A stretch of 64,000 nt of DNA from Thermoanaerobaculia bacterium (GTDB lineage Bacteria > Acidobacteriota > Thermoanaerobaculia > Gp7-AA8). The position numbers and the translations under genes are program-made. The first letter of the stretch is position 1. Each line of letters opens with the position of its first letter. The notes beneath the pieces were generated by a model. It had not been told where the DNA came from. It did no database searches and was given only the letters and a program-made list of their open reading frames with translations. This document shows positions 2,532 through 45,925 of the stretch, one piece after another. Location: contig DASYUK010000480.1 in assembly GCA_036001325.1 (NCBI GenBank), positions 1,033 through 65,032 of the forward strand. The letters are read 5' to 3'.

Positions 2532-3116
2532 ATGCCGTTCTGCGCTTACTGCGGTACGCCCGTCGACGCCATCTCGTACGCTCCGTGTCCCTCCTGCGGG
2601 AATCCGCGCAACGGTGCACCGCGTCCGGCGGTGAAGAAGGGCGGAAATGCCGCGATCATCATCGCGGCGGTCGTGATCGGCGGCCTCGTAGTCTTGGCGA
2701 TCGGCGGCATTCTGGCGGCGATTGCGATTCCTAACCTGCTCACTGCCATGCAAAGGACCAGGCAGAAGCGCACGATGGCCGACATGAGCGCGATCGGCAC
2801 TGCGGTCGAAGCGTATGGAAGCGATCAGCACAAGTATCCGACAGCCAGCGAGCTCGATTCGCTCATGCCGAAGTACGTCAGGAACCTTCCGCGCACTGAC
2901 GGGTGGGAGCATCCGTACCTCTACCAGTGCTGGAGCACGCACGGCGGCACCGACTGCGACGCGTACGCGATCGGCAGCGCCGGCAAAGACGGCGTTTTCG
3001 AGCGAAATGACTTGAAGGAGTATCTGGATGGCAGCAGAGCGACGACGAACTTCAACAGCGACATCGTGTTTGCCAATGGCTCGTTCGTTCAGTATCCGGA
3101 AGGAGTGCAACACTGA
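2532..3116 (+). CDS. zinc-ribbon / TM / GspG-type pseudopilin-like domain fusion protein
   Basis: N-terminal CxxC...CxxC ribbon, one TM helix containing the pilin-like ILAAIAIPNL motif, then a domain paralleling T2SS GspG (ADMSAIGTAVEAY, DGWEHPY, SAGKDG) but without a prepilin G/FTLIE cleavage site. Confidence 0.6.
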   Translation: MPFCAYCGTPVDAISYAPCPSCGNPRNGAPRPAVKKGGNAAIIIAAVVIGGLVVLAIGGILAAIAIPNLLTAMQRTRQKRTMADMSAIGTAVEAYGSDQHKYPTASELDSLMPKYVRNLPRTDGWEHPYLYQCWSTHGGTDCDAYAIGSAGKDGVFERNDLKEYLDGSRATTNFNSDIVFANGSFVQYPEGVQH

Positions 3117-3817: not shown

Positions 3818-4114
3818 TCAGCGGTGGTTGCGAAACCACGTCCACTGGTCGATCGATTTTCCTTCCTGGAGCTGCTGCGCCTGCAGGTAGCCATCGATTG
3901 CCGTGAAAGCTGCGACGACACCGGACAGCGTTCCGCAACTCGGAGGAAACAGGAAGACCGCGCACACAACGATCGCGATGATTCCTTTCCTCTTTTGTCC
4001 GAGCAGCAGGTAGCCCGCGCCCCCGAGGAACAGATTCAGGATGCAGACGAGTACGGGATCGACTCCGCCTCCCGGCCTGGGCACGGGAGGCGGTGCCTCG
4101 GAGCGATCTACCAC
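3818..4114 (-). CDS. small two-TM membrane protein (TM2-domain-like)
   Basis: 98 aa, GC3-rich codons, LNLFLGGAGYLLLGQKRKG motif; start abuts stop of the downstream DUF4870 gene. Confidence 0.5.
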   Translation of the reverse strand: MVDRSEAPPPVPRPGGGVDPVLVCILNLFLGGAGYLLLGQKRKGIIAIVVCAVFLFPPSCGTLSGVVAAFTAIDGYLQAQQLQEGKSIDQWTWFRNHR

Positions 4115-4533
4115 TTATCAGCCATGTCGCTGATGACGGGCACTCGGAAGCGCTGGCCGCCGACGCCCTTGACGATGCACATGATGCGGATGACGAGAAA
4201 CGCGATCCAGACGACGCACTGAACGGTCGCGATGCCGCAGCCGAGGCCGACGCCTTGGGGCATGAAGAATCCGACACAGGCCAGCACGACCCAGATCACG
4301 ACTTCGGCCACGAGGATGGCCAGGCCGTTCTTCGCATGCCACTGAACTTCGCGATCGTCTTTCTTCGTAAGAAGTGGGATGAGAGCGAGGATCCAGAGGT
4401 ACGACAGCACGACCATCAGCGTGCGGTCGGAACTCGCACCGGGCGCTCCGCCCGGTGGCGGTGGAGGCGGCGGTGTGTACGATCCGCCGGGTGGTGGCGG
4501 AGGGGGCACAGTGGGCGGAGGCATTGCGCTCAT
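4108..4533 (-). CDS. DUF4870 family membrane protein with Pro-rich N-terminus
   Basis: PPPPPPGGSYTPPPPPPPGG low-complexity N-terminus followed by the conserved DUF4870 core (LSYLWILALIPLL...WHAKNGLAIL); start chosen at MSAMPPP. Confidence 0.65.
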   Translation of the reverse strand: MSAMPPPTVPPPPPPGGSYTPPPPPPPGGAPGASSDRTLMVVLSYLWILALIPLLTKKDDREVQWHAKNGLAILVAEVVIWVVLACVGFFMPQGVGLGCGIATVQCVVWIAFLVIRIMCIVKGVGGQRFRVPVISDMADKW

Positions 4534-4576
4534 TCGAACTCCTTCTCCTATCGGATTTCTTTGAACGGGGCTGATT

Positions 4577-6232
4577 CTAGCGACTTTGCTCGAGCCGCGC
4601 GAGACGCCGTTCCGCCGCGGCAAGAGGGACCACGGCGAGAAGGATCGACGCGGTCACGGCAACCGCGATCGGCACGGCTGTGGCGATCCAGGGCCGCTCG
4701 TAACCGACGCGAAAGATCTTCCAGAAGAAGTACAGCATGATCGGCCGCGCCGCGAGCAGCATCATCGCGCCGACGTAAGTCAGCGAAACGGCCATGTAGG
4801 CGAAACCGCCGAGCGAGAGTCCTACCTGCAGCGGATTCTCTGCGTCGAAATTCGGTGAGAGAGCACCCATGCCCACACCGAGGCTCACGAGCGTGAAGGC
4901 GATCATCGCCGCCGCCGGCATCGTGAACGCCCAGACGATCAGCCCGGCCGCCAGGATCGTATTCGCAAACGCCGTTAGAAGAAGGGCGACCAGCGTCAAC
5001 GGGACCCCGTAGACGATCAACTTTACAGCCAGCAACTGCCGGTACGAGACCGGCGACACCTGCAACATCCAGAACGCTTTCCCTTCGGATGAGATGGACG
5101 GATAGGCGAAGCGCAAGCAGATTGCGGCGACCACGAAGCCGGCCATGCCGAGGTTCGCGTAGGCGACGAGCGTCGCGCGCGCATCGCCGCCGAGGGGGAG
5201 CATGCGCACGTTGTAGAGATAGATGAAGAGCAGCGCACCCATCATGAAGAGCTGCGACCACTGCGCGACGTCGCGCGTGAGCGTGCGAATTTCTTTCGCG
5301 ATCAGTGCGCGCACCGGCGGTTGCGCACGCGAGAGCAGCCTGTCGATCGAGCGCGTCAGAGGTTTTGCGCCGATCGCCATCGGGGCCATGCTCTCGCGCG
5401 CGCGAACGAAGGCGGCGAAATACGTGCGTCTCGCCGCAAACGCAAACAACGCGAACCCGATCAGAGCGAGACCAGCGATCCTCGGCGGCAGCGGCGAGGG
5501 ATGCAGAGATACCATCGTGTCGGCGAGCGCGGTGCCCGGATAAAGATCGATCGATGGCAGCTCGATCGCGCGCAGAGCAGCGACGAGATTGTCGGTGCGC
5601 ACTTCCGTGAAGAGCCGCTCCGGCCGGCTGACCCGGAACGCCACAACCGTGACGGTCAGAACGAGGATCGCGATCGTGGCGACGATCTGATGAACACGGC
5701 GCACCGGAAACCAACGGACGAGCAGAACGATGGTCAGACTGGCCAAAGTCACAGGAATCGTCAGCAACAGCGCGAGATTGCCGAGGACGATCGGGTAATA
5801 CGTCCACGGACGTTCGTACTGAAGCGCGAACGCAACGAAGAGCGGAACGAGAAAGGCGAAGACGATCGCCGCGCTTTGCAAGAGCGTCTTCGCCCATCGC
5901 GCGACGACGATGGTTAATTTGCGGCGAGGCGCGGCGTGATAGATATCGAGATCGAGATCAGTGAAGAACGCGCCGATCGCTGCGCTCATTGCCGATGAGA
6001 AGAGCACGATCGTGGCGACGAGAAAGACCATCGCCAGAATGTTGCGCAGGATCGCCAACGCGAAGAAGGGCGACGCCGCTTCAATCTGACCTGTCGCGCG
6101 GAAGAGTCGGCGAAACAGGGCGAAATCGCCATAGAGAAACAGGGCGAACGTGATCGCGACGACGCTGATGCGTGCGACGGCCGCGGCGTTGAGCGGGCGG
6201 AGTTTCGAGAGGGCGATGCGAAGAGACCACAT
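4577..6232 (-). CDS. polytopic membrane protein (putative ABC-exporter/ABC-2 permease-like, no ATPase domain)
   Basis: About 550 aa of almost continuous predicted TM helices. The ORF-track N-terminus (MGRRYRGLSAKRPTAPTTYDLRP) is translation of the intergenic palindrome, so start is placed at MWSL (6232). Confidence 0.5.
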   Translation of the reverse strand: MWSLRIALSKLRPLNAAAVARISVVAITFALFLYGDFALFRRLFRATGQIEAASPFFALAILRNILAMVFLVATIVLFSSAMSAAIGAFFTDLDLDIYHAAPRRKLTIVVARWAKTLLQSAAIVFAFLVPLFVAFALQYERPWTYYPIVLGNLALLLTIPVTLASLTIVLLVRWFPVRRVHQIVATIAILVLTVTVVAFRVSRPERLFTEVRTDNLVAALRAIELPSIDLYPGTALADTMVSLHPSPLPPRIAGLALIGFALFAFAARRTYFAAFVRARESMAPMAIGAKPLTRSIDRLLSRAQPPVRALIAKEIRTLTRDVAQWSQLFMMGALLFIYLYNVRMLPLGGDARATLVAYANLGMAGFVVAAICLRFAYPSISSEGKAFWMLQVSPVSYRQLLAVKLIVYGVPLTLVALLLTAFANTILAAGLIVWAFTMPAAAMIAFTLVSLGVGMGALSPNFDAENPLQVGLSLGGFAYMAVSLTYVGAMMLLAARPIMLYFFWKIFRVGYERPWIATAVPIAVAVTASILLAVVPLAAAERRLARLEQSR

Positions 6233-6238
6233 GATGAT

Positions 6239-6321
6239 GGGTCGTAGGTCGTAGGTCGTAGGTGCCGTGGGCCTTTTGGCGCTGAGGCCCCGATACCTAC
6301 GACCCACGACCTACGACCTAC
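6239..6321. repeat. long imperfect palindrome built from (GTCGTAG)3 ... (CTACGAC)3 arms with an inner GGGCC/GGCCC hairpin
   Basis: Direct reading: gggtcgtaggtcgtaggtcgtaggt...acctacgacccacgacctacgacctac; overlaps the ddl stop codon; sits between two minus-strand genes. Confidence 0.8.
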
Positions 6322-7400
6322 GTAATCCTACGCGCGTTGCGCAGCCACTCGAGCGCGCCGTCGCGCCGGGCGGTACGCGATCGGTGACGCTCCAAACCGA
6401 GCTCGATGAGCATCTCGATCAATTTCGAATATTTGATCTCGGTCGCCTCCCACAGTTTGGGATACATGGAGATGGTCGTGAAGCCCGGGATCGTATTGAT
6501 CTCGTTCACGAGCAGGCGACTGGTTCCCTTCTCCAGAAAAAAGTCGACGCGCGCGTAACCGCTTGCGCCGATCGCGCGAAACGCTCCCACCGCGAGCCGT
6601 CGAATCTCTTCGGTCTTTTCCTTCGGCAGCTTCGCCGGGATGACCAGCGTCGACTTCGCGTCGGCAGCGTATTTGTCCTCATAGTCGTAAAACTCGCGTC
6701 CGGCGATGATCTCGCCAGGCACGGACGCCTGCGGTTGATCGTTGCCGAGGACTGAGACTTCGAGCTCGCGAGCGTCGACGCCGCGCTCGATCAGGATCTT
6801 GTCGTCGAATCGCAGCGCGAATTCCACTGCAGCGGCGAGATCGCCGTCGCTCTTCACCTTCGTTACGCCGATCGATGATCCGCTGTTCGCCGGCTTCACG
6901 AAATAGGGAAGCCGCAACATGTTGATGACGGCGCGCGTGACCCGCTCGCGCTCATCGCTCCACTCAGTCTCGTGCACGAGAACGTATTCGACGGTCGGCA
7001 GCTTCGCCGTCGCGAAGGCGTGCTTCATGTGTCCCTTGTCCATCCCCACCGCCGACGCCGCGACGCCCGAGCCGACATACGGCGCGCCGATCGTCTCGAG
7101 GTAACCCTGCAGAGTGCCGTCCTCCCCACCGGTGCCGTGAATCAGAGGGAAGACGACATCCGCATTGCCGGCGCGCCACCATGAGTCGAACGAGAAATCG
7201 ACATCTCCTGCATCGCTGCTCGCGCCGCCGAGGATCTCCGCACTGCGCTGCGGCGCAATGAAGCGACCATCTTTCGCCACGCAGATCGGGATGATCTCGA
7301 TGCGCGACTTCGGCGCGGCGTTCGCGACAGAACGTGCCGAGAGAATCGAGACGTCGTGCTCGGCGCTCCGGCCGCCGAAGATCAGGGCTGTGCGGATCAT
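6318..7400 (-). CDS. ddl: D-alanine--D-alanine ligase
   Basis: 360 aa; ATP-grasp fold with N-terminal IFGGRSAEHDVS and C-terminal conserved Ddl motifs. Confidence 0.95.
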   Translation of the reverse strand: MIRTALIFGGRSAEHDVSILSARSVANAAPKSRIEIIPICVAKDGRFIAPQRSAEILGGASSDAGDVDFSFDSWWRAGNADVVFPLIHGTGGEDGTLQGYLETIGAPYVGSGVAASAVGMDKGHMKHAFATAKLPTVEYVLVHETEWSDERERVTRAVINMLRLPYFVKPANSGSSIGVTKVKSDGDLAAAVEFALRFDDKILIERGVDARELEVSVLGNDQPQASVPGEIIAGREFYDYEDKYAADAKSTLVIPAKLPKEKTEEIRRLAVGAFRAIGASGYARVDFFLEKGTSRLLVNEINTIPGFTTISMYPKLWEATEIKYSKLIEMLIELGLERHRSRTARRDGALEWLRNARRIT

Positions 7401-7412
7401 GTCTTCAAGGGT

Positions 7413-7497
7413 GTCAGGTCTTCAGTTTTCAGTTTTTTTCTACGACCATTGGATTTTTCCAAGACCGGTAGAAAAAAACTGAAAACTGAAGACCTGA
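7413..7497. terminator. perfect 31-bp inverted repeat (bidirectional terminator-like) with U/A tracts
   Basis: gtcaggtcttcagttttcagtttttttctac ... gtagaaaaaaactgaaaactgaagacctgac; lies between MCE gene stop and ddl start on the minus strand. Confidence 0.75.
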
Positions 7498-7503
7498 CCC
7501 CAT

Positions 7504-9036
7504 TTACTTCCCGATCGGGATGCTTCCGAGCAGATACTTCAAATCGTCGTCGCGCCAGCGGATGCCGCCGCCAATCGTGAAAGCGACGTCATTGAGCGGG
7601 TTGTCGACGCCCGCCGTCACAAAAAGGCGCGGCGTTTTCGGTTTCTCGCGCCGCAGCGTGTACTCGCCATAAGCGCGGAAGTGGGGACTGTTGTCGTAGC
7701 GCTGGCCGAAATCGAACGCTTCGCCGGTGAGCCGTACACGCGGATTGAACTGATAATCCGCGCCGACGCCGCCGGTGTTGTCGATCAGACCGACGCGCAG
7801 GCCGAGGTTATCGAGCAACCATCCCGCCTGCGCGGTGATGCGGAAGTCGCGATCGAATCGCGTCTCGTGCGTGATTGTCGTCGTCGTGATTCCTGTTGCC
7901 GGATTCGTCACGGTGAGAATCGTGTCTTTCTCGCGCTTGCGGCCGCGTGGATCGTCCGCGAGCTCGATGTTGTAGAAGCGGTTCCGATCGACATTCGGAA
8001 TCAATCGAAGCGTGGCCGCCGATCGCGAGCTGCCGCCGAAATTCTTGATTCCGTTCTGTTCCTTGTTGAGACCAGCCATGTAGTCGGCCTTCAGACCGAG
8101 GTCCATGCCGATCTTGCTCACGCGGCCGAGCGTGGTTCTCAGCTCGGTGACGCCCGTATCGACAGAAGCGAGAGCGGACGTGAGCCGCTCGTGCGCTTCG
8201 GGACTGTAGATCAGCTTCCCGACAGTTCCCTGGCCGCTCTTCACCTGGCCGGTGATGTCGTTCAGGTTGGTCGTGGTGATCTTCAAATCGGCGGAGAGCG
8301 TCCGCAGGTTTTCGACGACGCGGCGCAGGTCCTCGCGATTCTCACCGACTGTGCCGCCGATCTGATTGGCCACACGATCGAGCGACGCGGCCAGCTTGGG
8401 GATCTCCATGCGCAGGTCCGCCGTGATCGCGCGCATGTTGCCGACGGTAGCGTCGACGTTCGCGCGGTTCGCGGCGATCAACTCGCGCGTCTCGGCGGTG
8501 ATCAGCCGGACGTTCTCGACGATGTCCTCGAGCCTCTCTTGGCCGCCCGGTCCCGCCATCACGTGCCGCAGAGATTCGGTGATCGCTTTCACGTCGGCGG
8601 CGATGAGTGAGATCTGATTCGTCACGTCATCGATCGATGCCGGCGAGGTTCCTCGCAGCGTCACGGTCACCTGCGGCGGCATCGCCGGCGCGTTCTGCGT
8701 TCCCGGATCGAGCTCGACGTATTTCTCGCCCAGGAGACCGAGGTTCGCGACGTGCGCCGAAGCGTTGCTGCGCATCGGGACGTCGTCATCGATCTCCAGC
8801 GTCACTTCCGCTTTCCCGTTCGGGAGCAGCCGGATCTTCGACACTTTTCCCTTGCGCACGCCGGCCACGCGCACGGCTGATTTCTCATCGAGACCGGCGA
8901 CATTGTCGAAGATCACCTTGACCTGGCGCGTCCCTTTGCCGCGACTGATGTCGATGTCCTCGATCTTCAGGATGAAGTAGCCGAGGATGCCGAGGATGAT
9001 CAGCATGAAGACGCCGACTTTGGCTGCTGGTGACAT
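7504..9036 (-). CDS. MCE/MlaD-family protein with long C-terminal extension
   Basis: N-terminal TM plus MCE domain (VKVIFDNVAGLDEKSAVRVAGVRKGKV); about 350 aa extension ending in beta-strand-rich region with terminal aromatic-rich segment. Confidence 0.8.
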   Translation of the reverse strand: MSPAAKVGVFMLIILGILGYFILKIEDIDISRGKGTRQVKVIFDNVAGLDEKSAVRVAGVRKGKVSKIRLLPNGKAEVTLEIDDDVPMRSNASAHVANLGLLGEKYVELDPGTQNAPAMPPQVTVTLRGTSPASIDDVTNQISLIAADVKAITESLRHVMAGPGGQERLEDIVENVRLITAETRELIAANRANVDATVGNMRAITADLRMEIPKLAASLDRVANQIGGTVGENREDLRRVVENLRTLSADLKITTTNLNDITGQVKSGQGTVGKLIYSPEAHERLTSALASVDTGVTELRTTLGRVSKIGMDLGLKADYMAGLNKEQNGIKNFGGSSRSAATLRLIPNVDRNRFYNIELADDPRGRKREKDTILTVTNPATGITTTTITHETRFDRDFRITAQAGWLLDNLGLRVGLIDNTGGVGADYQFNPRVRLTGEAFDFGQRYDNSPHFRAYGEYTLRREKPKTPRLFVTAGVDNPLNDVAFTIGGGIRWRDDDLKYLLGSIPIGK

Positions 9037-9039
9037 GAT

Positions 9040-9624
9040 TCACTCCGATACGTTCAGCGGATCGATCCCCGCCTTCCTCATCATCTGAAAGAGCAGAGCA
9101 AGAGGCAATCCCACGACGTTCGTATAGCTGCCGTGAATGGAGTCGATAAAAATCGCGCCCACTCCCTGCGCGGCGTAGGCGCCCGCTTTATCGAGCGGCT
9201 CGCCAGTCTTCACATACCACTCGATGTCGCTCTGCGAAAGTGGAAGCATGCGCACCTCCGATTCGGCCACGCGCGTGTCACTGTACTGACGTTCGACGTT
9301 CTGCAACGTCACGCCGGTGTAAACCGTATGCGTGCGGCCGGCGATCGTCGCGAGCATTCGCTTCGCATCGGAGGCATCGACGGGTTTCTCCAGAAGCTGA
9401 TCACCGAGCAGGACGGTCGTGTCGGCGGCGATCACCCAACGCGACGGATGCTGCTTCGCGATCGCTTCCGCCTTTTCACGCGCGAGTCGCGCTACGTACT
9501 CTTCCGGTGCCTCGCCTGCCCGACGTTCTTCGGGAACATGACTCGGCACGACGTCGAATTCCACGCCGATCGATGCGAGAAGCTCGCGTCGCCGCGGTGA
9601 TGATGAGGCGAGGATGAAGCGCAT
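9040..9624 (-). CDS. maf: Maf-like nucleoside triphosphate pyrophosphatase
   Basis: MRFILASSSPRRRELL N-terminus; start ATG overlaps toxin stop (TGATG); ORF-track N-terminal extension is read-through of the toxin gene. Confidence 0.9.
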   Translation of the reverse strand: MRFILASSSPRRRELLASIGVEFDVVPSHVPEERRAGEAPEEYVARLAREKAEAIAKQHPSRWVIAADTTVLLGDQLLEKPVDASDAKRMLATIAGRTHTVYTGVTLQNVERQYSDTRVAESEVRMLPLSQSDIEWYVKTGEPLDKAGAYAAQGVGAIFIDSIHGSYTNVVGLPLALLFQMMRKAGIDPLNVSE

Positions 9625-9896
9625 CACCCGGCCCGGCCGATCGAGAGAATGACAATGAAGCGCGCTTCCGGCATGATCCGATAAAGGATGCGCAGGTGCG
9701 CGACGCGATAGCTCCACAGTCCTTTGAACGGCTCGAATAGCGGCACGCCGGTGATCGGATCCTCGTCGATCGCCTCCAGCGCCTTTCTGACCATCTCCTG
9801 CTCCGCGCTGCTCAGCGACCGCCACTCCGCTTCAACCGACTCCGCGATCCGAAGCCGGTCATTCCACAAAGAGATCCTCCGGCAGGAGCATCGCAT
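9624..9896 (-). CDS. RelE/ParE-family type II toxin
   Basis: About 90 aa; C-terminal ...FKGLWSYRVAHLRILYRIMPEARFIVILSIGRAG matches the RelE/ParE fold signature; overlaps antitoxin 3' end. Confidence 0.75.
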   Translation of the reverse strand: MRCSCRRISLWNDRLRIAESVEAEWRSLSSAEQEMVRKALEAIDEDPITGVPLFEPFKGLWSYRVAHLRILYRIMPEARFIVILSIGRAG

Positions 9897-10119
9897 TGCG
9901 GCGAATCTGCTCGTCGGCCGCGTCGATGCGCTCGCGCAGCACCGTGTCGTTGGCGATATCCACCGTTTCGCGAAGAGCGAGGTATTCGTCGTACGAGGCG
10001 AGAATGGCGACGGCACGGTCGCCTCGAACGAAGAGCGTTCGCTTACCGGTCAGCTCGCACTCGCCGACGAGCGCTCGCACGGCGTCCGGCAGGTCGAGAA
10101 TCTCGAGTCGCTTTTCCAT
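9859..10119 (-). CDS. Phd/YefM-family antitoxin
   Basis: 86 aa; ...AVAILASYDEYLALRETVDI... typical Phd/YefM; immediately upstream of and overlapping the toxin. Confidence 0.8.
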   Translation of the reverse strand: MEKRLEILDLPDAVRALVGECELTGKRTLFVRGDRAVAILASYDEYLALRETVDIANDTVLRERIDAADEQIRRNAMLLPEDLFVE

Positions 10120-10981
10120 TTCCGAAGAGCCCCTGCAGGTACGCGCGGAACTCGGCGCCGACGTCGGGATGATGCAGGGCGAAGTCGACCGTCGCCTTCA
10201 GGTATCCGAGTTTCTCGCCCGCGTCATAGCGATGGCCGTCGAACACGTAGCCGTAGAAGTCACCCTGGCGGACGAGCTCCCGCATCGCATCGGTGAGCTG
10301 GATCTCGCCGCCTGCGCCGCGCTCTGTCTTTGCGAGAAGCGGGAAGATATCCGCCGGCAGGATGTAGCGGCCGATGATCGCGTAGTGAGACGGCGGTTTG
10401 ATCTTCGGCTTCTCCACCATGTCGGTGACTTTGAATCGACGCTTGCCGATCAGCTCCCCGGCGACGATTCCGTAACGCGATGTCTCGCTCGCTGAAACTT
10501 CCATCAGCGCGACCACTGGACGACCGGTTTCTTCGAACACGCGCCGCATCTGAGACAGGCACGGTTCGTCGGACAGGATCACGTCATCGGGCAGCAGCAC
10601 CGCGAAGGGCTCGTTGACGACCGCATCGCGCGCCATGAGCACCGCGTGTCCGAGTCCGAGGGCGTCCTTCTGCCGGATGGAGATGAGGTCGACCATCTTG
10701 CCGGCCGCTTCGACTTCGGCGAGGAGATCGTTCTTGCCGCGCTCGCGGAGTTGCCGTTCGAGACCCGAAGAGCGATCGAAATGGTCGAGGATCGACTCCT
10801 TCCCCTTCGATGTGATGATGATCAGCTTGTCGAAGCCTGAGTCGCGCGCTTCTTCGATCCCATACTGAAGAATCGGCTTATCGACGAGCGGCAGCATCTC
10901 TTTGGGGATGACTTTCGTCGCCGGAAAAAAACGAGTACCGAAACCGGCACACGGAAACACACACGTTCGCAAGTTAGTCAT
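10043..10981 (-). CDS. galU: UTP--glucose-1-phosphate uridylyltransferase
   Basis: FPCAGFGTRFFPATKVIPKEMLPLVDKP N-terminal nucleotidyltransferase motif; C-terminal tail overlaps antitoxin gene by about 77 nt. Confidence 0.9.
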   Translation of the reverse strand: MTNLRTCVFPCAGFGTRFFPATKVIPKEMLPLVDKPILQYGIEEARDSGFDKLIIITSKGKESILDHFDRSSGLERQLRERGKNDLLAEVEAAGKMVDLISIRQKDALGLGHAVLMARDAVVNEPFAVLLPDDVILSDEPCLSQMRRVFEETGRPVVALMEVSASETSRYGIVAGELIGKRRFKVTDMVEKPKIKPPSHYAIIGRYILPADIFPLLAKTERGAGGEIQLTDAMRELVRQGDFYGYVFDGHRYDAGEKLGYLKATVDFALHHPDVGAEFRAYLQGLFGNGKATRDSRPAGRRASARRRVRADR

Positions 10982-10991
10982 GCACAGCAAG

Positions 10992-11015
10992 CATAACCGA
11001 GGACCGAGGACCGAG
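10992..11015. repeat. tandem heptamer (CCGAGGA)x3 immediately upstream of galU start; same 24-mer recurs at 45898-45925
   Basis: aaccgaggaccgaggaccgaggac identical at both loci. Confidence 0.8.
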
Positions 11016-11079
11016 GACTGGTGGTTGACACAGAACTTGCTTTGGCGGAATGACGTACTACTATTCTGAACTGCAGGCG

Positions 11080-13002
11080 ATGCGTAAATCCCTCATTTTT
11101 ATCGGCGTTCTTCTCGTGGCGATTCCGGTTTCGGCGCAATGGCGGCGCGCCGGACTCTTCGGTGCGGACGTTCGCGCGCTGGTTGCCGATCCGGTCGATC
11201 CCGATGTGCTTTATCTCGGCACGAGCGGCGGCGAAGTCTATGTCTCCACCGACGGCGCGAAGAGCTGGAGCAATGCGCGCAACGGCGTTCCCTTCCCCGG
11301 CTACGTCGTCGACAACCTCGTGATCGATCGCAATGGACGTCTGTGGACGGCATGCTGGGGTTTGTGGGGCGGGAGCGTCATCGCGGTCTCTGACGATCGC
11401 GGCAAAACATGGACGCGGCGCGACGCCGGTCTCGAGGACTCTTCGATCCGCGCGATCGCGATCGATCCGAACGATGCCGACTTCGTCATCGTCGGAGGTC
11501 TGGGCGGCGTCTATCGCAGCACGGACGGCGGCGAAACGTGGGAAAAGATCTCGGATCAGGAAAACGTCGAATCGCTGGCCATCGATCCGCGCACGCACGA
11601 TCGCATGTACATCGGTACGTGGCGCCAGGGTTGGCGCACGGACGATGGCGGGCAGACGTGGGTGCGCATCAACAACGGCATGGTGCTCGATACCGACATG
11701 TTCGGGATCACGTTTGACCCGAACGATCCTGACAACATCTGGGTCTCGACCTGCGGCTGGGTTTACAACACCGTGAATCGGGGCGATCAGTGGACGCGCT
11801 ATCGTGACGGCTTCAACAACCGGCGCGTTCACGATGTCGAGATCGATCCGTGCGAACCCGACACGATCTACGCCGGCTCGGTCGGCGGACTCTATCGCTC
11901 CGATGATCGCGGCAAGAGCTGGTACAGCGTCTCGAGCGAGGACCTCGTCGTGACCTCGGTCGTTCTCCATCCGCAGCGTCCCGATCGCATCATCCTCGGC
12001 GTTGAAGGCGATGGCGTGTATGTGTCGGACGATCGCGCCAGGTCGTTCACGCGCTCGTCGGACGGTTTGCACAACTTGCGCATCACTGCGATCGTCCCCG
12101 ATCCGTCGGCAAAGGACGTCGTCTACGCGGCGGTGGCATTCGGTGGCACAGCATCGGGTGTCTACCGCTCCGACGATGGAGCGAAGAGTTGGATGCGCAC
12201 GAGCACCACGCGCATGCCGGAGGTGTTGTCGATCGTCGTCGCTCCGGAAGCGGATGCGGAAGTGAAGTACGTCGCCGGAACGGAGAAGGGATTTTTCTGG
12301 AGCGGCGATGCAGTGGAATGGACGCGAGCCGAGCCTGTGAACTCTCCGGTTCGTGTCAACAAAGTGCTTCGCTTCAATAACACGCGATTGTTCGCCGCGA
12401 CTTCAGAAGGCGTGTTCACGACGCGCGACGCAGGAAAGAGCTGGTATCGCCTCGCCGGATCCGACAGCCGCACGGTCGATATCGCCCTCGGCAACCTCGG
12501 ATCGAACAAGGCGCTGTTCGCATTGACCGCGAATGGCATGACGGTCTTCGACGGCGAGAAGTGGTTGGCCGTGGCCAATTCGCCGGCGACCGGCCGGACG
12601 ATCGCGATCCGCACTGTCGGCGGGGTGCAGTATGTGTTCGTCGCGGGCGCGCAGGGCGTGAAGGCCGGACGCATTACTGACGAGGGCAGCGATTGGATCG
12701 CTTCCGATGCTCCCGATGCGCAATACGCTGCGGTGTACGGCTCCTCGCGCAGGCTGTTTCTCACGTCGCGGCAGCAGCGCGAAATCCTCGTCGGCAGTCC
12801 CGATGATAGCGACTGGCTCCAGATCGTCCTTCCGTCGCAGAACACGGAAGTCACGACGATCGTCCCCGATCCGTTCACCGATCGCTTCTACGTCGGCACG
12901 GTCGGCGAGGGCGTGTTCGTATTCGACGGCAAGATGCAGCGCTACGTCCGGCACGAGCCGGCGCCGGCGACAACCGCGGCAGGTGCGGGCGCCGCGCAGT
13001 AG
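11080..13002 (+). CDS. secreted BNR/Asp-box repeat beta-propeller protein (Ycf48/sialidase-like fold)
   Basis: Signal peptide MRKSLIFIGVLLVAIPVSA; at least 8 S-x-D-x-G-x-(T/S)-W repeats (STDGAKSW, SDDRGKTW, STDGGETW, TDDGGQTW...). Confidence 0.75.
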   Translation: MRKSLIFIGVLLVAIPVSAQWRRAGLFGADVRALVADPVDPDVLYLGTSGGEVYVSTDGAKSWSNARNGVPFPGYVVDNLVIDRNGRLWTACWGLWGGSVIAVSDDRGKTWTRRDAGLEDSSIRAIAIDPNDADFVIVGGLGGVYRSTDGGETWEKISDQENVESLAIDPRTHDRMYIGTWRQGWRTDDGGQTWVRINNGMVLDTDMFGITFDPNDPDNIWVSTCGWVYNTVNRGDQWTRYRDGFNNRRVHDVEIDPCEPDTIYAGSVGGLYRSDDRGKSWYSVSSEDLVVTSVVLHPQRPDRIILGVEGDGVYVSDDRARSFTRSSDGLHNLRITAIVPDPSAKDVVYAAVAFGGTASGVYRSDDGAKSWMRTSTTRMPEVLSIVVAPEADAEVKYVAGTEKGFFWSGDAVEWTRAEPVNSPVRVNKVLRFNNTRLFAATSEGVFTTRDAGKSWYRLAGSDSRTVDIALGNLGSNKALFALTANGMTVFDGEKWLAVANSPATGRTIAIRTVGGVQYVFVAGAQGVKAGRITDEGSDWIASDAPDAQYAAVYGSSRRLFLTSRQQREILVGSPDDSDWLQIVLPSQNTEVTTIVPDPFTDRFYVGTVGEGVFVFDGKMQRYVRHEPAPATTAAGAGAAQ

Positions 13003-13368
13003 CTAAACGAAACACGCAATCACCAGACTCACAGCGGCGACGCCGATCGCGATCGTGGGTACGCGAAACCAATACTTGAGCGCGAGCACTTCGTAGACCG
13101 CGGCGATGAGCGCAAGGATCCACGTCGGCATCGCGGCCATCACACAGACAACGCCGAACACAACGGCGCCGAGGCTGTGACTGAGGTTGAAGCCGAGCCA
13201 CGCATCCCACATGTTCGTGTTGCGGGAGAGGCGAACAGCGGTCGACTTCATGTGCTCCATGACGCGCGGATCGACCGGCGCGAGGCGCTCAAGAAACGTG
13301 AAGAGAGCGTGTAGAAGACCGAGCGCACAGAAAATCACGCCGGCGAAGACGACCAGATAGTGGCTCAA
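13003..13368 (-). CDS. hypothetical 4-TM membrane protein
   Basis: 121 aa ORF with GC3-rich codons; no recognised family. Confidence 0.45.
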   Translation of the reverse strand: MSHYLVVFAGVIFCALGLLHALFTFLERLAPVDPRVMEHMKSTAVRLSRNTNMWDAWLGFNLSHSLGAVVFGVVCVMAAMPTWILALIAAVYEVLALKYWFRVPTIAIGVAAVSLVIACFV

Positions 13369-13838
13369 CGTGATACGGGATCGTAGTAGCGGACGGCCAG
13401 ATATCCGAATCCCTTCTTCCCATAATCCGATTTCGGATCATCGGACAGGACGACCATGATGTTCGGAAGGCGGTCGTCGTAGACCACGATCGAATCCGAT
13501 CGAACGCTGGGCTTCGGATTGCCGTGCTTCTTCTTCAGCAGCGACTTCTGCTCCGCAAAGGCGGCGCGAATTTCGGGAAGGATGGCGAAGAGCTCGAAGC
13601 GAATCGAGCGCAGACGATCGCGATGGAAGTCGAGCGTGAGCGCTTTGTCCTCGCTGTAGTCGACAACCACCTCGTTGTCGTCTTTGCCGCGCTTCACCGT
13701 CCAGCCCGCGTCGCGCAGCGTCCTTTCCGCATCGGCGCGGGTCATGCCGATCGTCAGCCGGAACGACTGTGGCGTCATCCACGACGTTTTGGAATTGGAT
13801 GGGAACGAAGAGACGAGGAGGAGAAGAATGATGGCCAT
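13365..13838 (-). CDS. hypothetical secreted protein
   Basis: N-terminal signal-like MAIILLLLVSSFPS; no recognised family. Confidence 0.45.
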   Translation of the reverse strand: MAIILLLLVSSFPSNSKTSWMTPQSFRLTIGMTRADAERTLRDAGWTVKRGKDDNEVVVDYSEDKALTLDFHRDRLRSIRFELFAILPEIRAAFAEQKSLLKKKHGNPKPSVRSDSIVVYDDRLPNIMVVLSDDPKSDYGKKGFGYLAVRYYDPVSR

Positions 13839-13841
13839 GCG

Positions 13842-14516
13842 TCAATGGACGTAGGTGTCGGTCTGAATGTCCTTTCGCGATTGCACGATCGAAGTCGCCA
13901 GCACGACGCGCCGGCCGATCTCTTCCCACTGTTGCGTGCGAACCAGATCGGGCATCGCGAGAGAAGGACCGAGATTCACAGCGACGCAGCCGGCGTCGAG
14001 GTAGGCATCGATCATGTCCAGCGGCACCGGACCGCCCGCAAGCATGGGGATGTCGCGAATCGGTCCGCGGATCGTGCGGATGTAGTCAGGGCCGCCGAAG
14101 AATTGTGCGGGGTAGACCTTGACGATGTCCGCTCCCGCTTCCCAGGCGCGGATGATCTCGGTCGGCGTTGCCGCGCCGGCGATCGAGAGCAGATCATTCT
14201 CGAGCGCGTACTCGATCACGCGGACGTCCGTGTGCGGCGAGACGATCGCTTTCGCCCCTGCCCGCCGCGCCGACGCGGCGTCATTCGAGCTGCGCACCGT
14301 TCCGGCGGCAACGATGACGTCGTCTCGAGCGTACTTTTGGGCGATGTGGGAGATGAGATCGAAGGCGTCGGGCGAGGTCAGAGTGATCTCGACGATCGAA
14401 ATCCCGTTGCGCGCGTACGCATCGGCGACGGCGCGCGCCGCGGCGGCACTATCCTCTCGTACCACCCCGATAATCTGTTCGGAGCAGACGCGCTCCAGGA
14501 GCTCTTTTCGTGACAT
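13842..14516 (-). CDS. eda: KDPG/KHG aldolase (2-dehydro-3-deoxyphosphogluconate aldolase)
   Basis: TIM-barrel aldolase motifs ...GISIVEITLTSPDA...VAAGTV...KVYPA... Confidence 0.85.
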   Translation of the reverse strand: MSRKELLERVCSEQIIGVVREDSAAAARAVADAYARNGISIVEITLTSPDAFDLISHIAQKYARDDVIVAAGTVRSSNDAASARRAGAKAIVSPHTDVRVIEYALENDLLSIAGAATPTEIIRAWEAGADIVKVYPAQFFGGPDYIRTIRGPIRDIPMLAGGPVPLDMIDAYLDAGCVAVNLGPSLAMPDLVRTQQWEEIGRRVVLATSIVQSRKDIQTDTYVH

Positions 14517-14577
14517 GAAGCGTAATTAGGTTAACACGCGACATGCGCTAAGCTGTTGCCGCCCACGGAGGTCGCTC

Positions 14578-15552
14578 ATGGCCCTGGTCAACAAAGCCAT
14601 CAACGAGGTCACCGTCAAACTGGTCTATTACGGTCCCGGTTTGTGCGGCAAGACCACGAACCTCGAGAAGATTTACGGAAATCCGAAGCTCGAGAACAAG
14701 GGAAAGATGATCTCGATGGCCACCGAGACCGACCGGACGCTCTTCTTCGACTTCATGCCGATGGAGCTCGGCACGGTCGGCGGTCAGAAGGTGCGCGTAC
14801 AGCTCTACACCGTGCCCGGACAGGTCTTTTACGACGCGACGCGCAAGCTGGTGCTGCGCGGCGCGGACGGCGTCGTCTTCGTTGCCGACTCGCAGGACAC
14901 GATGCGCGAGTCGAACCTCGACAGCCTCGAGAACCTGAAGACGAATCTGCGTCTCAATCGCCTCGATCCGGAGAAGGTGGCGATCGTCTTTCAGTACAAC
15001 AAGCGCGATCTGCCGAACGTCGATTCGGTCGATGACATGAACGCATACCTCAATCCGGGAACCGCGCCGGTCGTCGAGGCGGCGGCGATTTCCGGAATGG
15101 GCGTGACGGCGACGCTGCGCGCCGCGATCGCGAAGATTCTCGAGAACCTGAAGCACAACGTCGACACGACACTGCACGATCAGCCGGAGCTTGCCGCACC
15201 GGACATGAAGGCGAAGTCGGGCGTGACGTCCGCTTCGGCCGGAACGCCGAAACTCTCGATGCGGACGGAAGGCGGAACGCGCACCGAAGCGCCGGCCACG
15301 CCGGCCAAGACGCAAGTGGGAACGCGTCCCGTTCCGGCGCCATCGCCGGCATTCGTCGCGCCGGTCCTCGATGAAGAAGATCCGTTCGCCGATGCCGCTC
15401 CCGCGTCTCCGCAGCCGCAGACCGGCAATGGTCGCGCGGACATCGAGTCCATGCTGGCCAGCACCCGCGAGATGATCCGCGCGCTGGAAGTGGCGCTCGA
15501 GAAAGCAAAGCAGAACGAACGATCGCTGGCGGAGAAACTTGGCCGCCTGTAG
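14578..15552 (+). CDS. mglA: MglA-family Ras-like GTPase with ~130-aa Ala/Pro-rich and coiled-coil C-terminal extension
   Basis: N-terminal 190 aa align closely with MglA (KLVYYGPGLCGKTTNL, TETDRTLFFDF, LYTVPGQVFYDA, VFVADSQ, QYNKRDLPN). Confidence 0.85.
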   Translation: MALVNKAINEVTVKLVYYGPGLCGKTTNLEKIYGNPKLENKGKMISMATETDRTLFFDFMPMELGTVGGQKVRVQLYTVPGQVFYDATRKLVLRGADGVVFVADSQDTMRESNLDSLENLKTNLRLNRLDPEKVAIVFQYNKRDLPNVDSVDDMNAYLNPGTAPVVEAAAISGMGVTATLRAAIAKILENLKHNVDTTLHDQPELAAPDMKAKSGVTSASAGTPKLSMRTEGGTRTEAPATPAKTQVGTRPVPAPSPAFVAPVLDEEDPFADAAPASPQPQTGNGRADIESMLASTREMIRALEVALEKAKQNERSLAEKLGRL

Positions 15553-15555
15553 TCG

Positions 15556-17040
15556 ATGACCCTTCGCGTCCCGCTGGAGCATTACCCCGGGTTCAACCGG
15601 TTTGTCATCGACTGGCTTCATGGCGACGCGCGATTTCTTCCGCGCACGGAACACAAAAAACGCGCGCGAATGATCGACGCAACGCTCGTCGAAGCGCTCG
15701 CCGACTCCAACCATCGCTGGGGTCTCTCCGTCAAAGACGATTTGCAACGCTGGGCGCGAGGCCAATCGATCACGATCGTCGGCGGCCAGCAGGTGGGCTT
15801 TGGCGGCGGCCCGCTCTATACGTTGGCGAAGATCGCGTCGCTTCTGAAAATGAAACGCGATCTCGAGCGCAGCGGCACGCCGGCGACCGTGCTGTTCTGG
15901 CTGGCCAACGAAGATCACGACTTCGACGAAGTAGCGCAGCTTTGCGCGCCCGTGCGCAATCGCCAGCTCGATCTTCACTGCATGCGCGCGTCACGGAGCG
16001 GGCAGTCGAAGCTCGCTGTCGGGCGCGTGCCGATTCCTGAGGCGCTCATCACGGAATTTCTCGCCTTCTATGAGATCGAACGGCCATCGTGGCTGCGCGA
16101 AGGAATCGACTTCGGCGATTCGTTCGCCGAGCTGGTCGCGAGCATCTTCGGCAGCGAGATCATCCTCGTCGATGCGCTGCTGCCGGAGCTGCGCCGCGCC
16201 GGGAAACCGTTGTTCGATTCAATCTTCGCGCAATGGCAGGACATCGAGCGAGCGATCGCGAATCGATCGCGCGAACTGATCGACGCCGGGTACTCGCCGC
16301 AGGTGCTGCCGCGCGACGCGGAGTCGTACTCGCTGCTCTTCGAGCTGGACGAGCGTTTCGAGCGTCATCTCGTCGATGGTCCGCGCCAGATCGTGCCTGA
16401 GCGTATCTCCACGACTGCACTGACTCGCCCCTTGCTGCAGGATTTCGTTCTGCAGCCCGACATTTTCATCGGCGGGCCGGCCGAGGTCGCCTATTACGCG
16501 CAGATTGCATCGCTTTACAAAATGCTGAACGTGCCGATGCCGCGCGTGGCGCTGCGCGGGCACACGCTCGTCGCGCCGAAGAGAGTCGTTCGTTTCATGG
16601 AACGATACGAGATCAGGCCGGAAGAGGTCTTCACATCGCCCGATGACCTTCTCGCAGCGCGAGAGCCGGAAGGCGTCACGCAGATCCGGCGCGAAGCGGA
16701 GGCGGCGCGCAAAGATTTGATGAAGCGCATCGAGCGCATCGGCGAGCTCGCGCTTCCGGCCGAGCACGCGCTCGCGCGCGCCATCGCGCGCTCGATCGGC
16801 CACGTCGAGTACCACTTCAACAAACTCGCCGAGCGCGCCATCCGCGGGCTGGTGCGCAAAGACAAAGAACGATACGCTGCGACCAGGGAGCTTCTCGCGA
16901 CCTTGTACCCCGATCGTCATGTGCAGGACCGCGTCGTCGGCTGGTATGCCTACTGGCTCGAGTACGGACAACATCTCGTCGATTCGCTGATCGAAGAGAC
17001 CGAGCCCGATACGGCGTCGTTCAAAATCATCGGTCTATGA
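15556..17040 (+). CDS. bshC: bacillithiol biosynthesis cysteine-adding enzyme BshC
   Basis: 494 aa; conserved BshC/YllA N-terminal ...GGQQVGFGGGPLYTLAKI... region; 4 nt after mglA stop. Confidence 0.85.
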   Translation: MTLRVPLEHYPGFNRFVIDWLHGDARFLPRTEHKKRARMIDATLVEALADSNHRWGLSVKDDLQRWARGQSITIVGGQQVGFGGGPLYTLAKIASLLKMKRDLERSGTPATVLFWLANEDHDFDEVAQLCAPVRNRQLDLHCMRASRSGQSKLAVGRVPIPEALITEFLAFYEIERPSWLREGIDFGDSFAELVASIFGSEIILVDALLPELRRAGKPLFDSIFAQWQDIERAIANRSRELIDAGYSPQVLPRDAESYSLLFELDERFERHLVDGPRQIVPERISTTALTRPLLQDFVLQPDIFIGGPAEVAYYAQIASLYKMLNVPMPRVALRGHTLVAPKRVVRFMERYEIRPEEVFTSPDDLLAAREPEGVTQIRREAEAARKDLMKRIERIGELALPAEHALARAIARSIGHVEYHFNKLAERAIRGLVRKDKERYAATRELLATLYPDRHVQDRVVGWYAYWLEYGQHLVDSLIEETEPDTASFKIIGL

Positions 17041-17759
17041 GCCAGACGGTCGACCTTCTCTTCGTCGCCGCGCATGCCGATGACCTCGAGCTCTCCTGTG
17101 GAGGAACGATCGCCAAAGCGGTGAGCGATGGCACCGCGGTCGGCATGCTGGAGCTGACGCATGGCGAGATGGGAACGCGCGGCACGACGCAGACGCGAAA
17201 GCGCGAGGCGAAGAAGGCCGCGCAGATTCTCGGTGTCGCGTTTCGCGAGCATCTCGATTTCGGCGACGGCGGCCTGCGCACAGGTCGCGACGAGGAGATG
17301 CAGTTGATCGAATTTCTCCGCCGCGCGCGGCCGAAGCTCGTTTTCGCGCCCTGGCCGGATGAGCGCCATCCCGATCACGTGCGCACCGGCAAGATCGTCA
17401 CCGACGCCTCGTTCTACGCCGGTCTGCGGCAGATTCACACGAAGTTCGCCGCGCATCGGCCACAGGCAGTGATCTATTACATGCAGAATTACCTGCTGCA
17501 CCCGTCGTTCGTGATCGACGTGACGGATTCCTGGGAAACGAAGATGAAAGCGATCGGCGCTTTCCAATCGCAGTTCTTCAACTCGAAGTCGAAGGAGCCG
17601 CGAACGTTTGTTTCCGAACAGAGGTTCATGGAGATGATCGACGCCCGCGGCAAACATTTCGGCGGGCTGATCGGCGCCCGGTACGGCGAGGGGTATCTGA
17701 CGAAGCGACCGCCGCGGGTGGATGATGTGATTGCGGCTTATGCGGGACGAGAGGTGTAG
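17037..17759 (+). CDS. bshB: bacillithiol biosynthesis deacetylase BshB (LmbE/PIG-L family)
   Basis: AHADDLELSCGGTIAK...HPDH motifs of LmbE-like deacetylases; ATGA-type overlap with bshC. Confidence 0.85.
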   Translation: MSQTVDLLFVAAHADDLELSCGGTIAKAVSDGTAVGMLELTHGEMGTRGTTQTRKREAKKAAQILGVAFREHLDFGDGGLRTGRDEEMQLIEFLRRARPKLVFAPWPDERHPDHVRTGKIVTDASFYAGLRQIHTKFAAHRPQAVIYYMQNYLLHPSFVIDVTDSWETKMKAIGAFQSQFFNSKSKEPRTFVSEQRFMEMIDARGKHFGGLIGARYGEGYLTKRPPRVDDVIAAYAGREV

Positions 17760-17767
17760 TCGTTTGT

Positions 17768-17818
17768 CGTTGGTCCCTGGTCGTTAGTCAACGACTAACG
17801 ACCAGGGACTAAGGACCA
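17768..17818. promoter_or_regulatory. 15-bp perfect stem-loop with outer stem sequestering the bshA Shine-Dalgarno
   Basis: ccctggtcgttagtc aac gactaacgaccaggg, flanked by tggtcc...ggacca that includes AAGGA 5 nt upstream of bshA ATG. Confidence 0.6.
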
Positions 17819-17819
17819 A

Positions 17820-18983: not shown

Positions 18984-19038
18984 GGGGCGCGCCCCTCATC
19001 CGCCGCTGCGCGGCACCTTCTCCCGCGGCGAGAAGGTT
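18944..19038. repeat. three-hairpin dispersed repeat element, copy A (forward orientation)
   Basis: ccctctcccaccgggagaggg / gggtgaggggcgcgcccctcatcc / caccttctcccgcggcgagaaggt; homologous copies at 23633-23734 and (inverted) 53519-53614. Confidence 0.85.
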
Positions 19039-19043
19039 TCTGC

Positions 19044-23674: not shown

Positions 23675-23734
23675 GGGGCTAGCCTCTCGCCCCTCATCTG
23701 CCGCTTCGCGGCACCTTCTCCCGCCGGGAGAAGG
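23633..23734. repeat. three-hairpin dispersed repeat element, copy B
   Basis: gccctctcccaccgggagagggcgg...gggtgaggggctagcctctcgcccctcatc...caccttctcccgccgggagaagg. Confidence 0.85.
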
Positions 23735-23761
23735 CTCTGAGCGGTCTGCTATCCTTTTCTC

Positions 23762-28102: not shown

Positions 28103-30422
<2,320 letters not shown>

Positions 30423-30424
<2 letters not shown>

Positions 30425-30493
30425 TTTTGGATTTGCGATTTTGGATTTTGGATTGAGCCGAATCCAAAATCGAAAATCCAAAATCGAAAATGA
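30423..30493. promoter_or_regulatory. A/U-rich long imperfect inverted repeat of GATTTTG/CAAAATC units spanning the start codon of the downstream gene
   Basis: gattttggatttgcgattttggattttggatt gagccg aatccaaaatcgaaaatccaaaatcgaaaATG; no SD upstream of the ATG. Confidence 0.7.
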
Positions 30494-36027: not shown

Positions 36028-36049
36028 CTGTTATAGTGACGCCCCCGAA

Positions 36050-45897: not shown

Positions 45898-45925
45898 GAA
45901 ACCGAGGACCGAGGACCGAGGACCG
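45898..45925. repeat. tandem heptamer (CCGAGGA)x4; second copy of the 10992-11015 motif
   Basis: aaaccgaggaccgaggaccgaggaccgacgac. Confidence 0.8.

Follow-up and report, generated by a model that had tools for sequence, protein, structure and literature searches.

Six palindromes between adjacent genes

The window analysed here is a stretch of 64,000 nucleotides of contig DASYUK010000480.1, which belongs to an uncultured acidobacterium from soil (class Thermoanaerobaculia, Acidobacteriota). Our subject is a set of six long palindromes in its gene spacers, the focal one lying between ddl and a membrane protein gene of the ABC_tran_2 family. Exact-protein look-ups with window proteins gave matches in JGI soil metagenomes and in the metagenome-assembled genome (MAG) GCA_036506335.1, and the strain-level contigs used below came from these look-ups. 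The nearest relatives of Ddl were found in Thermoanaerobaculia MAGs, at 61-75% identity, and a metagenome scan with Ddl gave no match above 73% identity. The genome is compact: intergenic DNA amounts to only ~2.95 kb (4.6%) of the window, and this fraction contains all six palindromes. Among the co-directional spacers of at least 35 nt (n = 16), six are filled by these palindromes and two further ones are occupied by a different palindromic family. The neighbouring genes are ordinary, intact housekeeping genes according to Pfam on the window open reading frames (ORFs), the junctions being MlaD-like to Ddl to ABC_tran_2, LigB to LigB-RidA, Wzy to ECF sigma and Iso_dh to DUF309, besides one in a bsh cluster. 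No tRNA or tmRNA genes were found in the window.

A sequence-only reading of the window had proposed six intergenic palindromes of one architecture. All of them exist, either exactly at the positions where it placed them or a few bases away, with agreement of three methods: an independent repeat finder, Tandem Repeats Finder, and our own hairpin scanner and periodicity scan. The elements are 50-100 nt long and their arms, made of tandem 7- or 8-nt units, form stems of 22-31 bp, with 82-100% complementarity and loops of 3-31 nt. Tandem Repeats Finder and the periodicity scan gave 2.3-4.4 copies per arm, the period being 7 or 8. Counting as hairpins those with 20 or more matched pairs and a loop no longer than 45 nt, 8 were observed in the window, against a mean of 0.03 and a maximum of 1 in 100 dinucleotide-preserving shuffles; hairpins with periodic arms numbered 5 in the window and 0 in the shuffles. 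The elements are described here as self-complementary hepta- or octanucleotide simple sequence repeats (SSRs), often with a short hairpin core of unique sequence in the middle. They are confined to places at which this compact genome can accommodate additional DNA, in most cases precisely the gap from one stop codon to the following start. The six are listed below, with the extent of the whole feature in brackets where it differs from that of the stem-loop.

6240-6318 (6322): ddl / ABC_tran_2 membrane protein gene, sense strand minus; arms 24 nt, stem 23/24, loop 31 nt; unit GGTCGTA
7413-7498 (7407-7504): MlaD-like gene (stop codon 7504-7506) / ddl (start codon ends at 7400); arms 31 nt (7413-7443 and 7468-7498), stem 31/31, loop 24 nt; unit TTCAGTT, two copies only, plus a T-run (T/A run)
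17766-17816 (17763-17819): bshB-like gene (PIG-L; stop codon 17757-17759) / bshA-like gene (GT4; ATG at 17820); arms 24 nt (17766-17789 and 17793-17816), stem 22/24, loop 3 nt; weakly periodic GTCGTTG / GTCCCTG / GTCGTTA
30424-30491 (30423-30491): between two LigB-family genes, the stop TGA (30422-30424) lying within the first unit; arms 31 nt, stem 27/31, loop 6 nt; unit GATTTTG in the 5' arm, AATCCAA/AATCGAA in the 3' arm (14-nt super-period)
37472-37553 (37472-37557): Wzy_C gene (stop codon ends at 37470) / ECF sigma factor gene (ATG at 37576); arms 34 nt, stem 28/34, loop 14 nt; GGTCGTA-type unit in the 5' arm, ACCCACG x3.7 in the 3' arm
43424-43496 (43424-43497): isocitrate/isopropylmalate dehydrogenase gene (stop codon ends at 43423) / DUF309 gene (ATG at 43498); arms 32 nt, stem 27/32, loop 9 nt; 8-mer unit GGTTGCGC x4 against ACCCCGCA x4.4

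The window alone has at least four unrelated units, but the units are not unrelated throughout: 6240 and 37472 have a common unit and also a non-repeat central core that is ~70% identical. A GTCGT core is common to three of the six, and the "loops" of 6240, 7413 and 37472 hold an inner, non-repeat GC stem. The element at 17768-17818, taken before for a 15-bp unique stem, turned out to be a 22/24-bp stem with weak heptamer periodicity. It belongs to a bshC-bshB-bshA (bacillithiol biosynthesis) cluster (15556-18983), in which bshC and bshB overlap by 4 nt and the palindrome splits bshB from bshA.

The focal element consists of the following parts:

6240-6263: first arm; GGTCGTA x3.4 on the + strand; read on the sense (minus) strand, it forms the 3' arm, ACCTACG x3
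6264-6294: centre; non-repeat, with the inner GC stem GGGCC...GGCCC
6295-6322: second arm; ACCTACG x4 on the + strand, with one ACCCACG variant; unit number polymorphic between strains

On the sense strand its 3' arm ends 7 nt 5' of the ATG (6230-6232) of the ABC_tran_2 gene. The TAG of ddl (6318-6320, minus) is located at the base of the stem, as the first triplet of the element, so the overlap with the ddl stop codon that had been described is real. Reading through the element indeed yields the artefactual N-terminus ...TTYDLRPII-M of the downstream ORF, which was also confirmed.

The position of the stems with respect to the flanking codons is very regular. In all six cases the stem begins 0-2 nt past the upstream stop codon, and the distances from its end to the next start codon are 7, 8, 0, 3, 22 and 1 nt, the 3' arm ending 0-8 nt 5' of the ATG in five of the six. 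The 3' arm of the 30424 element runs into the next ATG (30490-30492) and covers two of its bases, the first and the second. Co-directional cases in relatives showed stop-to-arm distances of -8 to +12 nt, with one exception at 45 nt. The RNA folds predicted for the six elements ranged from -35 to -65 kcal/mol, that of the focal hairpin being -64.5 kcal/mol (z = -11 relative to shuffles). A Shine-Dalgarno motif is missing in five of the six downstream genes; the sixth, bshA, has an AAGGA Shine-Dalgarno-like motif within the 3' arm of the 17766 element. The attributes of an RNase III substrate or a coupling hairpin, that is, at least 20 bp of near-perfect double-stranded RNA with the initiation region within the stem, were found in silico only.

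Strain alleles, orthologous junctions and spread among relatives

The strain-level contigs are 99.1-100% identical to the window and come from other samples. Wherever one of these contigs spans the site of an element, the element was present, and this holds for all six. The focal element was obtained in three alleles, given here on the sense strand:

Window: 5' arm GTCGTAG GTCGTGG GTCGTAG; 3' arm 3 x ACCTACG; 3+3 units; spacer 85 nt
L180: 5' arm with one extra GTCGTAG; 3' arm 3 units; 4+3 units; spacer 92 nt
L181: 5' arm 4 units; 3' arm 4 units; 4+4 units; spacer 99 nt

Contig L001 terminates within the focal element and displays a 4-unit arm. At 37472, contig L167 is without exactly one unit of the 5' arm (GGTCATA), and the other four elements were invariant among 2-6 contigs (7413 in three and 43424 in two strain contigs). 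Whole units are gained and lost by slipped-strand mispairing, one arm at a time. The origin suggested by the sequence-only reading, slipped-strand or hairpin-templated expansion, is directly supported in its first part by the 3+3, 4+3 and 4+4 alleles and the one-unit loss in L167. Copying between arms on a hairpin template found no support: the asymmetric 4+3 intermediate favours separate steps for each arm and therefore supports slippage and not a simultaneous, hairpin-templated event. From ~3 unit indels per ~3.7 "palindrome x % divergence", a rough figure, we roughly estimate a unit-indel rate per locus about two orders of magnitude above the substitution rate per site.

In relatives, the junctions flanking ddl are either empty, with genes that abut or overlap (ATGA-type), or hold a palindrome with an unrelated unit, the units at orthologous ddl junctions being TTCAGTT, AGTGCTG, GAAACCA, GGTCCCTC, GTTGTCC and AGGTGAC. 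The C-termini of the upstream proteins can be aligned, so that the element is seen to fill exactly the gap from stop to start. At the MlaD-to-ddl junction, 7 of 10 syntenic genomes are occupied, by different sequences of the same architecture. The unit AGTSCTG is kept at one orthologous junction in L002, L008 and L085, and CGCGGTYT is kept in L005 and L082. Over short distances the unit type is passed on vertically, and over longer distances it is replaced.

Neighbouring elements within L005, and likewise within L082, have a common unit, whereas orthologous elements differ between the two. In L085, a 51-nt heptamer palindrome (11878-11928) lies in frame inside the ABC_tran_2 gene, with a net gain of 12 residues compared with the window ortholog; its unit belongs to the GGTTGCC/GGTTACC family, as do those at L085 11093 and 723. 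Taking into account the core common to 6240 and 37472, the units shared by neighbours and the in-gene copy, some copying between loci appears to occur.

A census was carried out on ~305 kb formed by the window and the loci of its closest relatives (L002-L013 and L082-L086). It gave 41 periodic palindromes, 31 of period 7 and 10 of period 8, with L002 holding six in 21 kb and L084 and L085 five each. At about one per 7 kb, the elements are an abundant feature, typical of this Thermoanaerobaculia clade. Period arrays in the relatives' loci (240 kb) were 57 of period 7, 11 of period 6 and 10 of period 8; other taxa had 53 period-7 arrays per 1825 kb. The same architecture was found in some loci from Terriglobia and Blastocatellia and in two Chloroflexota MAGs, one of Anaerolineales and one of Anaerolineae, and was not found in most other loci fetched. 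Over all loci, 63 periodic palindromes form 34 unit groups at no more than one mismatch, and in each of L002, L084 and L085 one unit type recurs in 2-3 elements within ~20 kb.

The two arms do not come in arbitrary order. In the 41-element set the G/T-rich arm is first in 33 palindromes and the A/C-rich arm in 4 (two-sided binomial ~1e-6, weaker once related copies are allowed for), a property that is identical on either strand of a palindrome; outside the clade the bias is weaker, 10 against 7. The 5' arms contain 40% G and 25% T, and the 3' arms 40% C and 25% A. Start trinucleotides numbered 60 in 5' arms and 9 in 3' arms, and stop trinucleotides 55 and 17, but this asymmetry is not independent evidence because it follows from the base composition. 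On the same ground we rejected stop codons as the cause of the unit composition.

Comparison with described element classes

The sequence-only reading had not recognised a described class of elements. Nevertheless, paired inverted tandem 7-9-mers have already been catalogued in Geobacter metallireducens (PMC2700814) and in Xanthomonas (PMC4692102). The class is known but unexplained, and the new points are how abundant it is in Acidobacteriota, its geometry relative to stop and start codons, the bias in arm order and the alleles among strains. The elements share with the published ones tandem units of 7-9 nt, a nearby reverse-complement array, an intergenic location and length variation between strains.

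In strain GS-15 of G. metallireducens, Aklujkar et al. (2009) listed 24, 21 and 8 opposite-strand pairs of tandem octa-, nona- and heptanucleotides, annotated as putative binding sites of global regulators (classes 1-3, with IHF/HU as a guess), one example lying between proB and proA (PMC2700814). As in our case, 3-5 tandem units of 7-9 nt are paired with such units on the other strand, a short and variable distance away, in intergenic positions that include those within a pathway, and there are several unit classes per genome. Comparing with the published consensus only, GGTTGCGC resembles GTTGCTYN and AGTCCTGA resembles MTYCTGA. Geobacter belongs to a different phylum, however, and its repeats form BLAST families of 8-24 pairs each, whereas unit diversity per region is higher here; neither strain polymorphism nor stop/start geometry was reported there (PMC2700814). 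In Xanthomonas, intergenic GGGAATC heptamer arrays occur in 70-75 cases as convergent pairs (Rehm et al. 2015, PMC4692102). These also have the G-rich unit first, can form a stem-loop as inverted pairs, and vary extensively in length between related strains at conserved positions. They differ in having one unit consensus per genome and in being read as G-quadruplex formers, while most units here have only GG, many lack a G-run, and they vary from locus to locus.

An excess of heptameric SSRs in bacteria, which was suggested to be connected with the stretch of DNA that the polymerase holds, is attributed to Mrazek et al. (2007) in the account given by PMC4692102. TAACTGA arrays lie next to start codons in Beggiatoaceae and cyanobacteria, and cold-shock proteins were proposed as their binders (MacGregor 2015, PMC4679880). 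The heptamer SSRs, the cyanobacterial short tandemly repeated repetitive sequences and the TAACTGA arrays resemble our elements in the preference for a 7-nt period over 6 or 8, the intergenic location, often beside start codons, and the variable copy number; unlike them, they are mostly direct arrays with no inverted partner and with one or few fixed units.

Repetitive extragenic palindromic (REP) sequences, and the REPIN elements composed of them, are likewise intergenic palindromes, enriched between co-directional or convergent genes, transcribed as hairpins (PMC3733652, PMC3116915), occasionally located inside genes, and different between strains. They are, however, high-copy, near-identical families with a gene for a REP-associated tyrosine transposase (RAYT), as opposed to the diverse tandem-unit stems found here. 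A classical REP/REPIN was rejected on the length of the stem, which is 22-31 bp for the window elements and reaches 48 bp in L012, against 5-13 bp for REPs (PMC3733652). A conserved, unpaired terminal GTAG/CGTC tag was not found, since GTAG occurs only within the repeated unit of 6240 and 37472 and is missing from 7413, 30424 and 43424. Among the ~65 window ORFs scanned against Pfam there was no transposase, including the Y1 (RAYT) type. The elements were not MITEs (miniature transposable elements with inverted repeats) either: comparison of occupied with empty orthologous sites gave no target-site duplication, and there was no presence/absence among strain contigs. The view that this is not a single mobile family was thus borne out, by the 34 unit groups, the lack of a transposase in the window and the presence of all six elements in every strain contig spanning their site.

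Intrinsic terminators were discarded, given that a scan of 4000-20000, which covers 6240, 7413 and 17766, called none and that no T-run follows any of the six stems; the element inside the bshCBA operon also counts against that reading. Rfam gave no matches when the entire window was scanned at gathering thresholds; with permissive settings, 6150-7560 produced only sub-threshold, microRNA-precursor-like matches on both strands, which is a generic hairpin signal. Integron attC sites, CRISPR and assembly artefacts were rejected on the syntenic housekeeping flanks, the absence of a repeat-spacer layout and the agreement of independent assemblies.

Two other repeats were noted. One is a second palindromic family, non-tandem and ~100 nt long, with copies at window 23632-23736 and 53524-53610 and at L164 1360-1465. 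Its structure is CCCTCTCCC-N3-GGGAGAGGG ... GGGTGAGGGG, with arms of up to 51 nt, and its copies are ~75-85% alike. Contig L164, 99.98% identical to the window elsewhere, has a copy at window position 36030-36040, in the divergent GT-Trm112 spacer. As that copy is missing from the window and from L165, L166 and L168, the family seems to be actively mobile, in a REPIN- or MITE-like manner. The other is a REP-like motif, GTCATCC(T/C)GAGC...GCGAAGGATC, located in the spacer 3' of ddl in several relatives (L002 ~11090-11170, where it is duplicated, L006 ~9370-9420, L009 ~2990-3040, L011 ~11110-11150 and L014 ~11180-11210).

Explanations, consequences and related repeats

Intercistronic hairpins that serve for RNase III processing or translational coupling are known from the early mRNA of phage T7 and from the coat-replicase junction of MS2. 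They resemble the present elements in the long, near-perfect stems between cistrons, with the downstream initiation region inside the stem, and differ in being unique, conserved sequences with neither tandem-unit arms nor length polymorphism.

Considering the non-random occurrence, the intergenic confinement, the stop/start geometry, the preferred period, the strain alleles, the turnover at orthologous junctions, the copying between loci and the published precedents, we think that the elements are probably slippage-driven, largely neutral hairpin SSRs, in which coupling or processing is a side effect. We take them for by-products of slippage that are for the most part neutral or selfish and have a modulatory side effect, and not for dedicated regulators. 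The complementarity of the arms would be kept because a hairpin may be the only tolerated, least harmful form of insert at a gene junction, as folding of the RNA would bring the stop codon back beside the following start at the stem's base. A very stable intercistronic hairpin, as predicted, would hide the downstream initiation region, and a ribosome terminating 0-2 nt before the stem could open it, giving translational coupling; alternatively, RNase III might cleave the 22-31-bp duplex. Coupling or RNase III processing is the likely effect of the hairpins, as far as the predicted folds allow. Some copies may also have spread between loci via copying or gene conversion.

Several observations weigh against this reading. 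The arm-order bias (33 vs 4) and the 7-nt preference are not accounted for by slippage alone. The unit-number alleles come from short-read metagenome assemblies, and contigs L001 (in 6240) and L178 (in 30424) break inside palindromes, so a contribution of assembly to the alleles is possible, though each element is shorter than a read. As to the side effect, the mismatches of the stems on the sense strand are 15 G.U and 17 A.C, with no sign of selection at the RNA level. Divergent and convergent spacers also hold elements, roughly in proportion to the frequency of such junctions; the gene caller used for the relatives' loci was a crude one, based on GC content at third codon positions (GC3), which misclassified at least one window junction, so this census of orientations is approximate. 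At least one element, that of L085 in ABC_tran_2, lies inside a coding region; together with the divergent and convergent cases, it means that a junction-specific function is not required. The presence/absence at orthologous junctions argues against an essential role.

The elements could instead be non-autonomous elements of REP/REPIN or MITE type, spread by a structure-recognising transposase (RAYT/TIRYT, IS200/IS605 type) and modified by slippage only later. Recurrence of unit families within a genome, units common to neighbours, the non-repeat core shared by 6240 and 37472 and the presence/absence at orthologous junctions would fit such an origin, as would the in-frame copy in L085, REPs being known inside genes, the GTAG tag of REPs contained in the unit GTCGTAG, and the distinct RAYT-like TIRYT group encoded by Acidobacteria (PMC3733652). 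We nevertheless consider it unlikely, since 63 elements fall in 34 unit groups with no conserved terminal tag, occupied and empty sites differ by no target-site duplication, stems of 22-48 bp exceed the 5-13 bp of REPs (PMC3733652), the ~65 window ORFs include no transposase, and none of the six shows presence/absence among strain contigs, unlike the second, non-tandem family. Selection as post-transcriptional regulators, acting through coupling, as RNase III sites or by protecting the 3' end of the upstream mRNA, with unit number as a rheostat of expression, would explain the flush stop-stem-start geometry, the very stable predicted stems, the scarcity of Shine-Dalgarno motifs outside the 3' arm, and the filling of the MlaD-to-ddl junction with one architecture in 7 of 10 syntenic genomes. 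The low number of alternative start codons in 3' arms (9 vs 60) could be cited as well, but it follows from base composition alone. Taking into account that G.U pairs are not in excess over A.C mismatches on the sense strand, that close relatives have these junctions empty with overlapping genes, and that elements are also found in divergent and convergent spacers and inside a gene, dedicated regulation seems quite unlikely to us.

A bolder version of the same idea, which we find improbable, takes the palindromes as a lineage-wide, hypermutable post-transcriptional control in which a unit gained or lost in one arm would alter the symmetry of the hairpin and thereby tune the stoichiometry of the operon. 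With the hairpin placed exactly from stop to start, translation of the downstream gene would require either coupling or a cut by RNase III. Cold-shock-domain chaperones bound head-to-tail, which take heptamers and prefer GT-rich motifs (an idea from PMC4679880, raised there for TAACTGA repeats), would be the reason for the 7-nt period and the G/U-rich 5' arm, and the bound chaperones would decide co-transcriptionally whether the hairpin forms. Binding of proteins to the DNA, in iteron-like arrays for IHF/HU-type or other global regulators as proposed for G. metallireducens, is suggested by the inverted pairs of tandem short units, typical of multimeric binding sites, and by the resemblance of some units to the Geobacter classes (PMC2700814). 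With at least four unrelated units in the window and 34 groups overall, no single sequence-specific protein fits, and the elements lie between co-transcribed genes and not at promoters, with an unstable number of units; we hold this explanation very improbable. An artefact of assembling or sequencing palindromic and tandem DNA might be suspected from the contigs that end inside palindromes (L001 and L178) and from the fact that all the data are metagenome assemblies, but it deserves practically no credence: identical sequences are present in 3-6 independent assemblies (JGI, Logan, NCBI), the same architecture appears in relatives via different assemblers and long reads, and the positions between intact genes are frame-consistent.

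If these elements are typical, they would make up a sizeable part of the scarce intergenic DNA of Thermoanaerobaculia (~16% in the window). In practice, they cause false N-terminal extensions in gene calls and broken assemblies, and they offer fast-evolving length markers for strain typing in metagenomes. They also provide a natural experiment on how far very stable hairpins are tolerated between the cistrons of an operon, and the strain alleles make the dynamics of slippage directly testable. The arm-order bias and the 7-nt period are as unexplained here as in the older observations on Geobacter, Xanthomonas and cyanobacteria.

Viral contigs (L182-L216) were also found to hold exact three-unit arrays of arbitrary heptamers. 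The contigs are diverse, with a GC content of 33-69% among five checked, and in these five the arrays are solitary and direct, often beside other heptamer variants (in L186: GGTCATA, GGTCGTA x4 and GGTCACA x3). Exact three-unit arrays of GGTCGTA gave 5 matches in viral contigs, against 5 and 17 for two composition-matched permutations and 8 for AGTCCTG. A special status of the unit GGTCGTA was accordingly rejected, permuted heptamer arrays being equally frequent.

The window itself contains further arrays and hairpins outside the set of six. Three solitary heptamer arrays were seen: ACCGAGG x3.3 at 10996-11018 (+), in a divergent spacer and with no inverted partner, which is of the same SSR class and is not a palindrome; ACCGAGG x4.3 at 45901-45930 (+), with the same unit, directly 3' of the stop of a minus-strand zf-CDGSH gene; and CAGGTCG x4 at 220-248, within the annotated N-terminus of a SufS-like protein, upstream of the Pfam domain. 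The true SufS-like start codon may lie downstream of this last array. Two hairpins have no tandem units. One, at 49827-49894, has 30-nt arms (28/30) and is located at the overlap of the PP2C and trypsin-FHA ORFs. The other, a palindrome with 25-nt arms at 61123-61172, lies between the convergent homocysteine methyltransferase/MTHFR and SpoIIE-type phosphatase genes and may be a bidirectional terminator.

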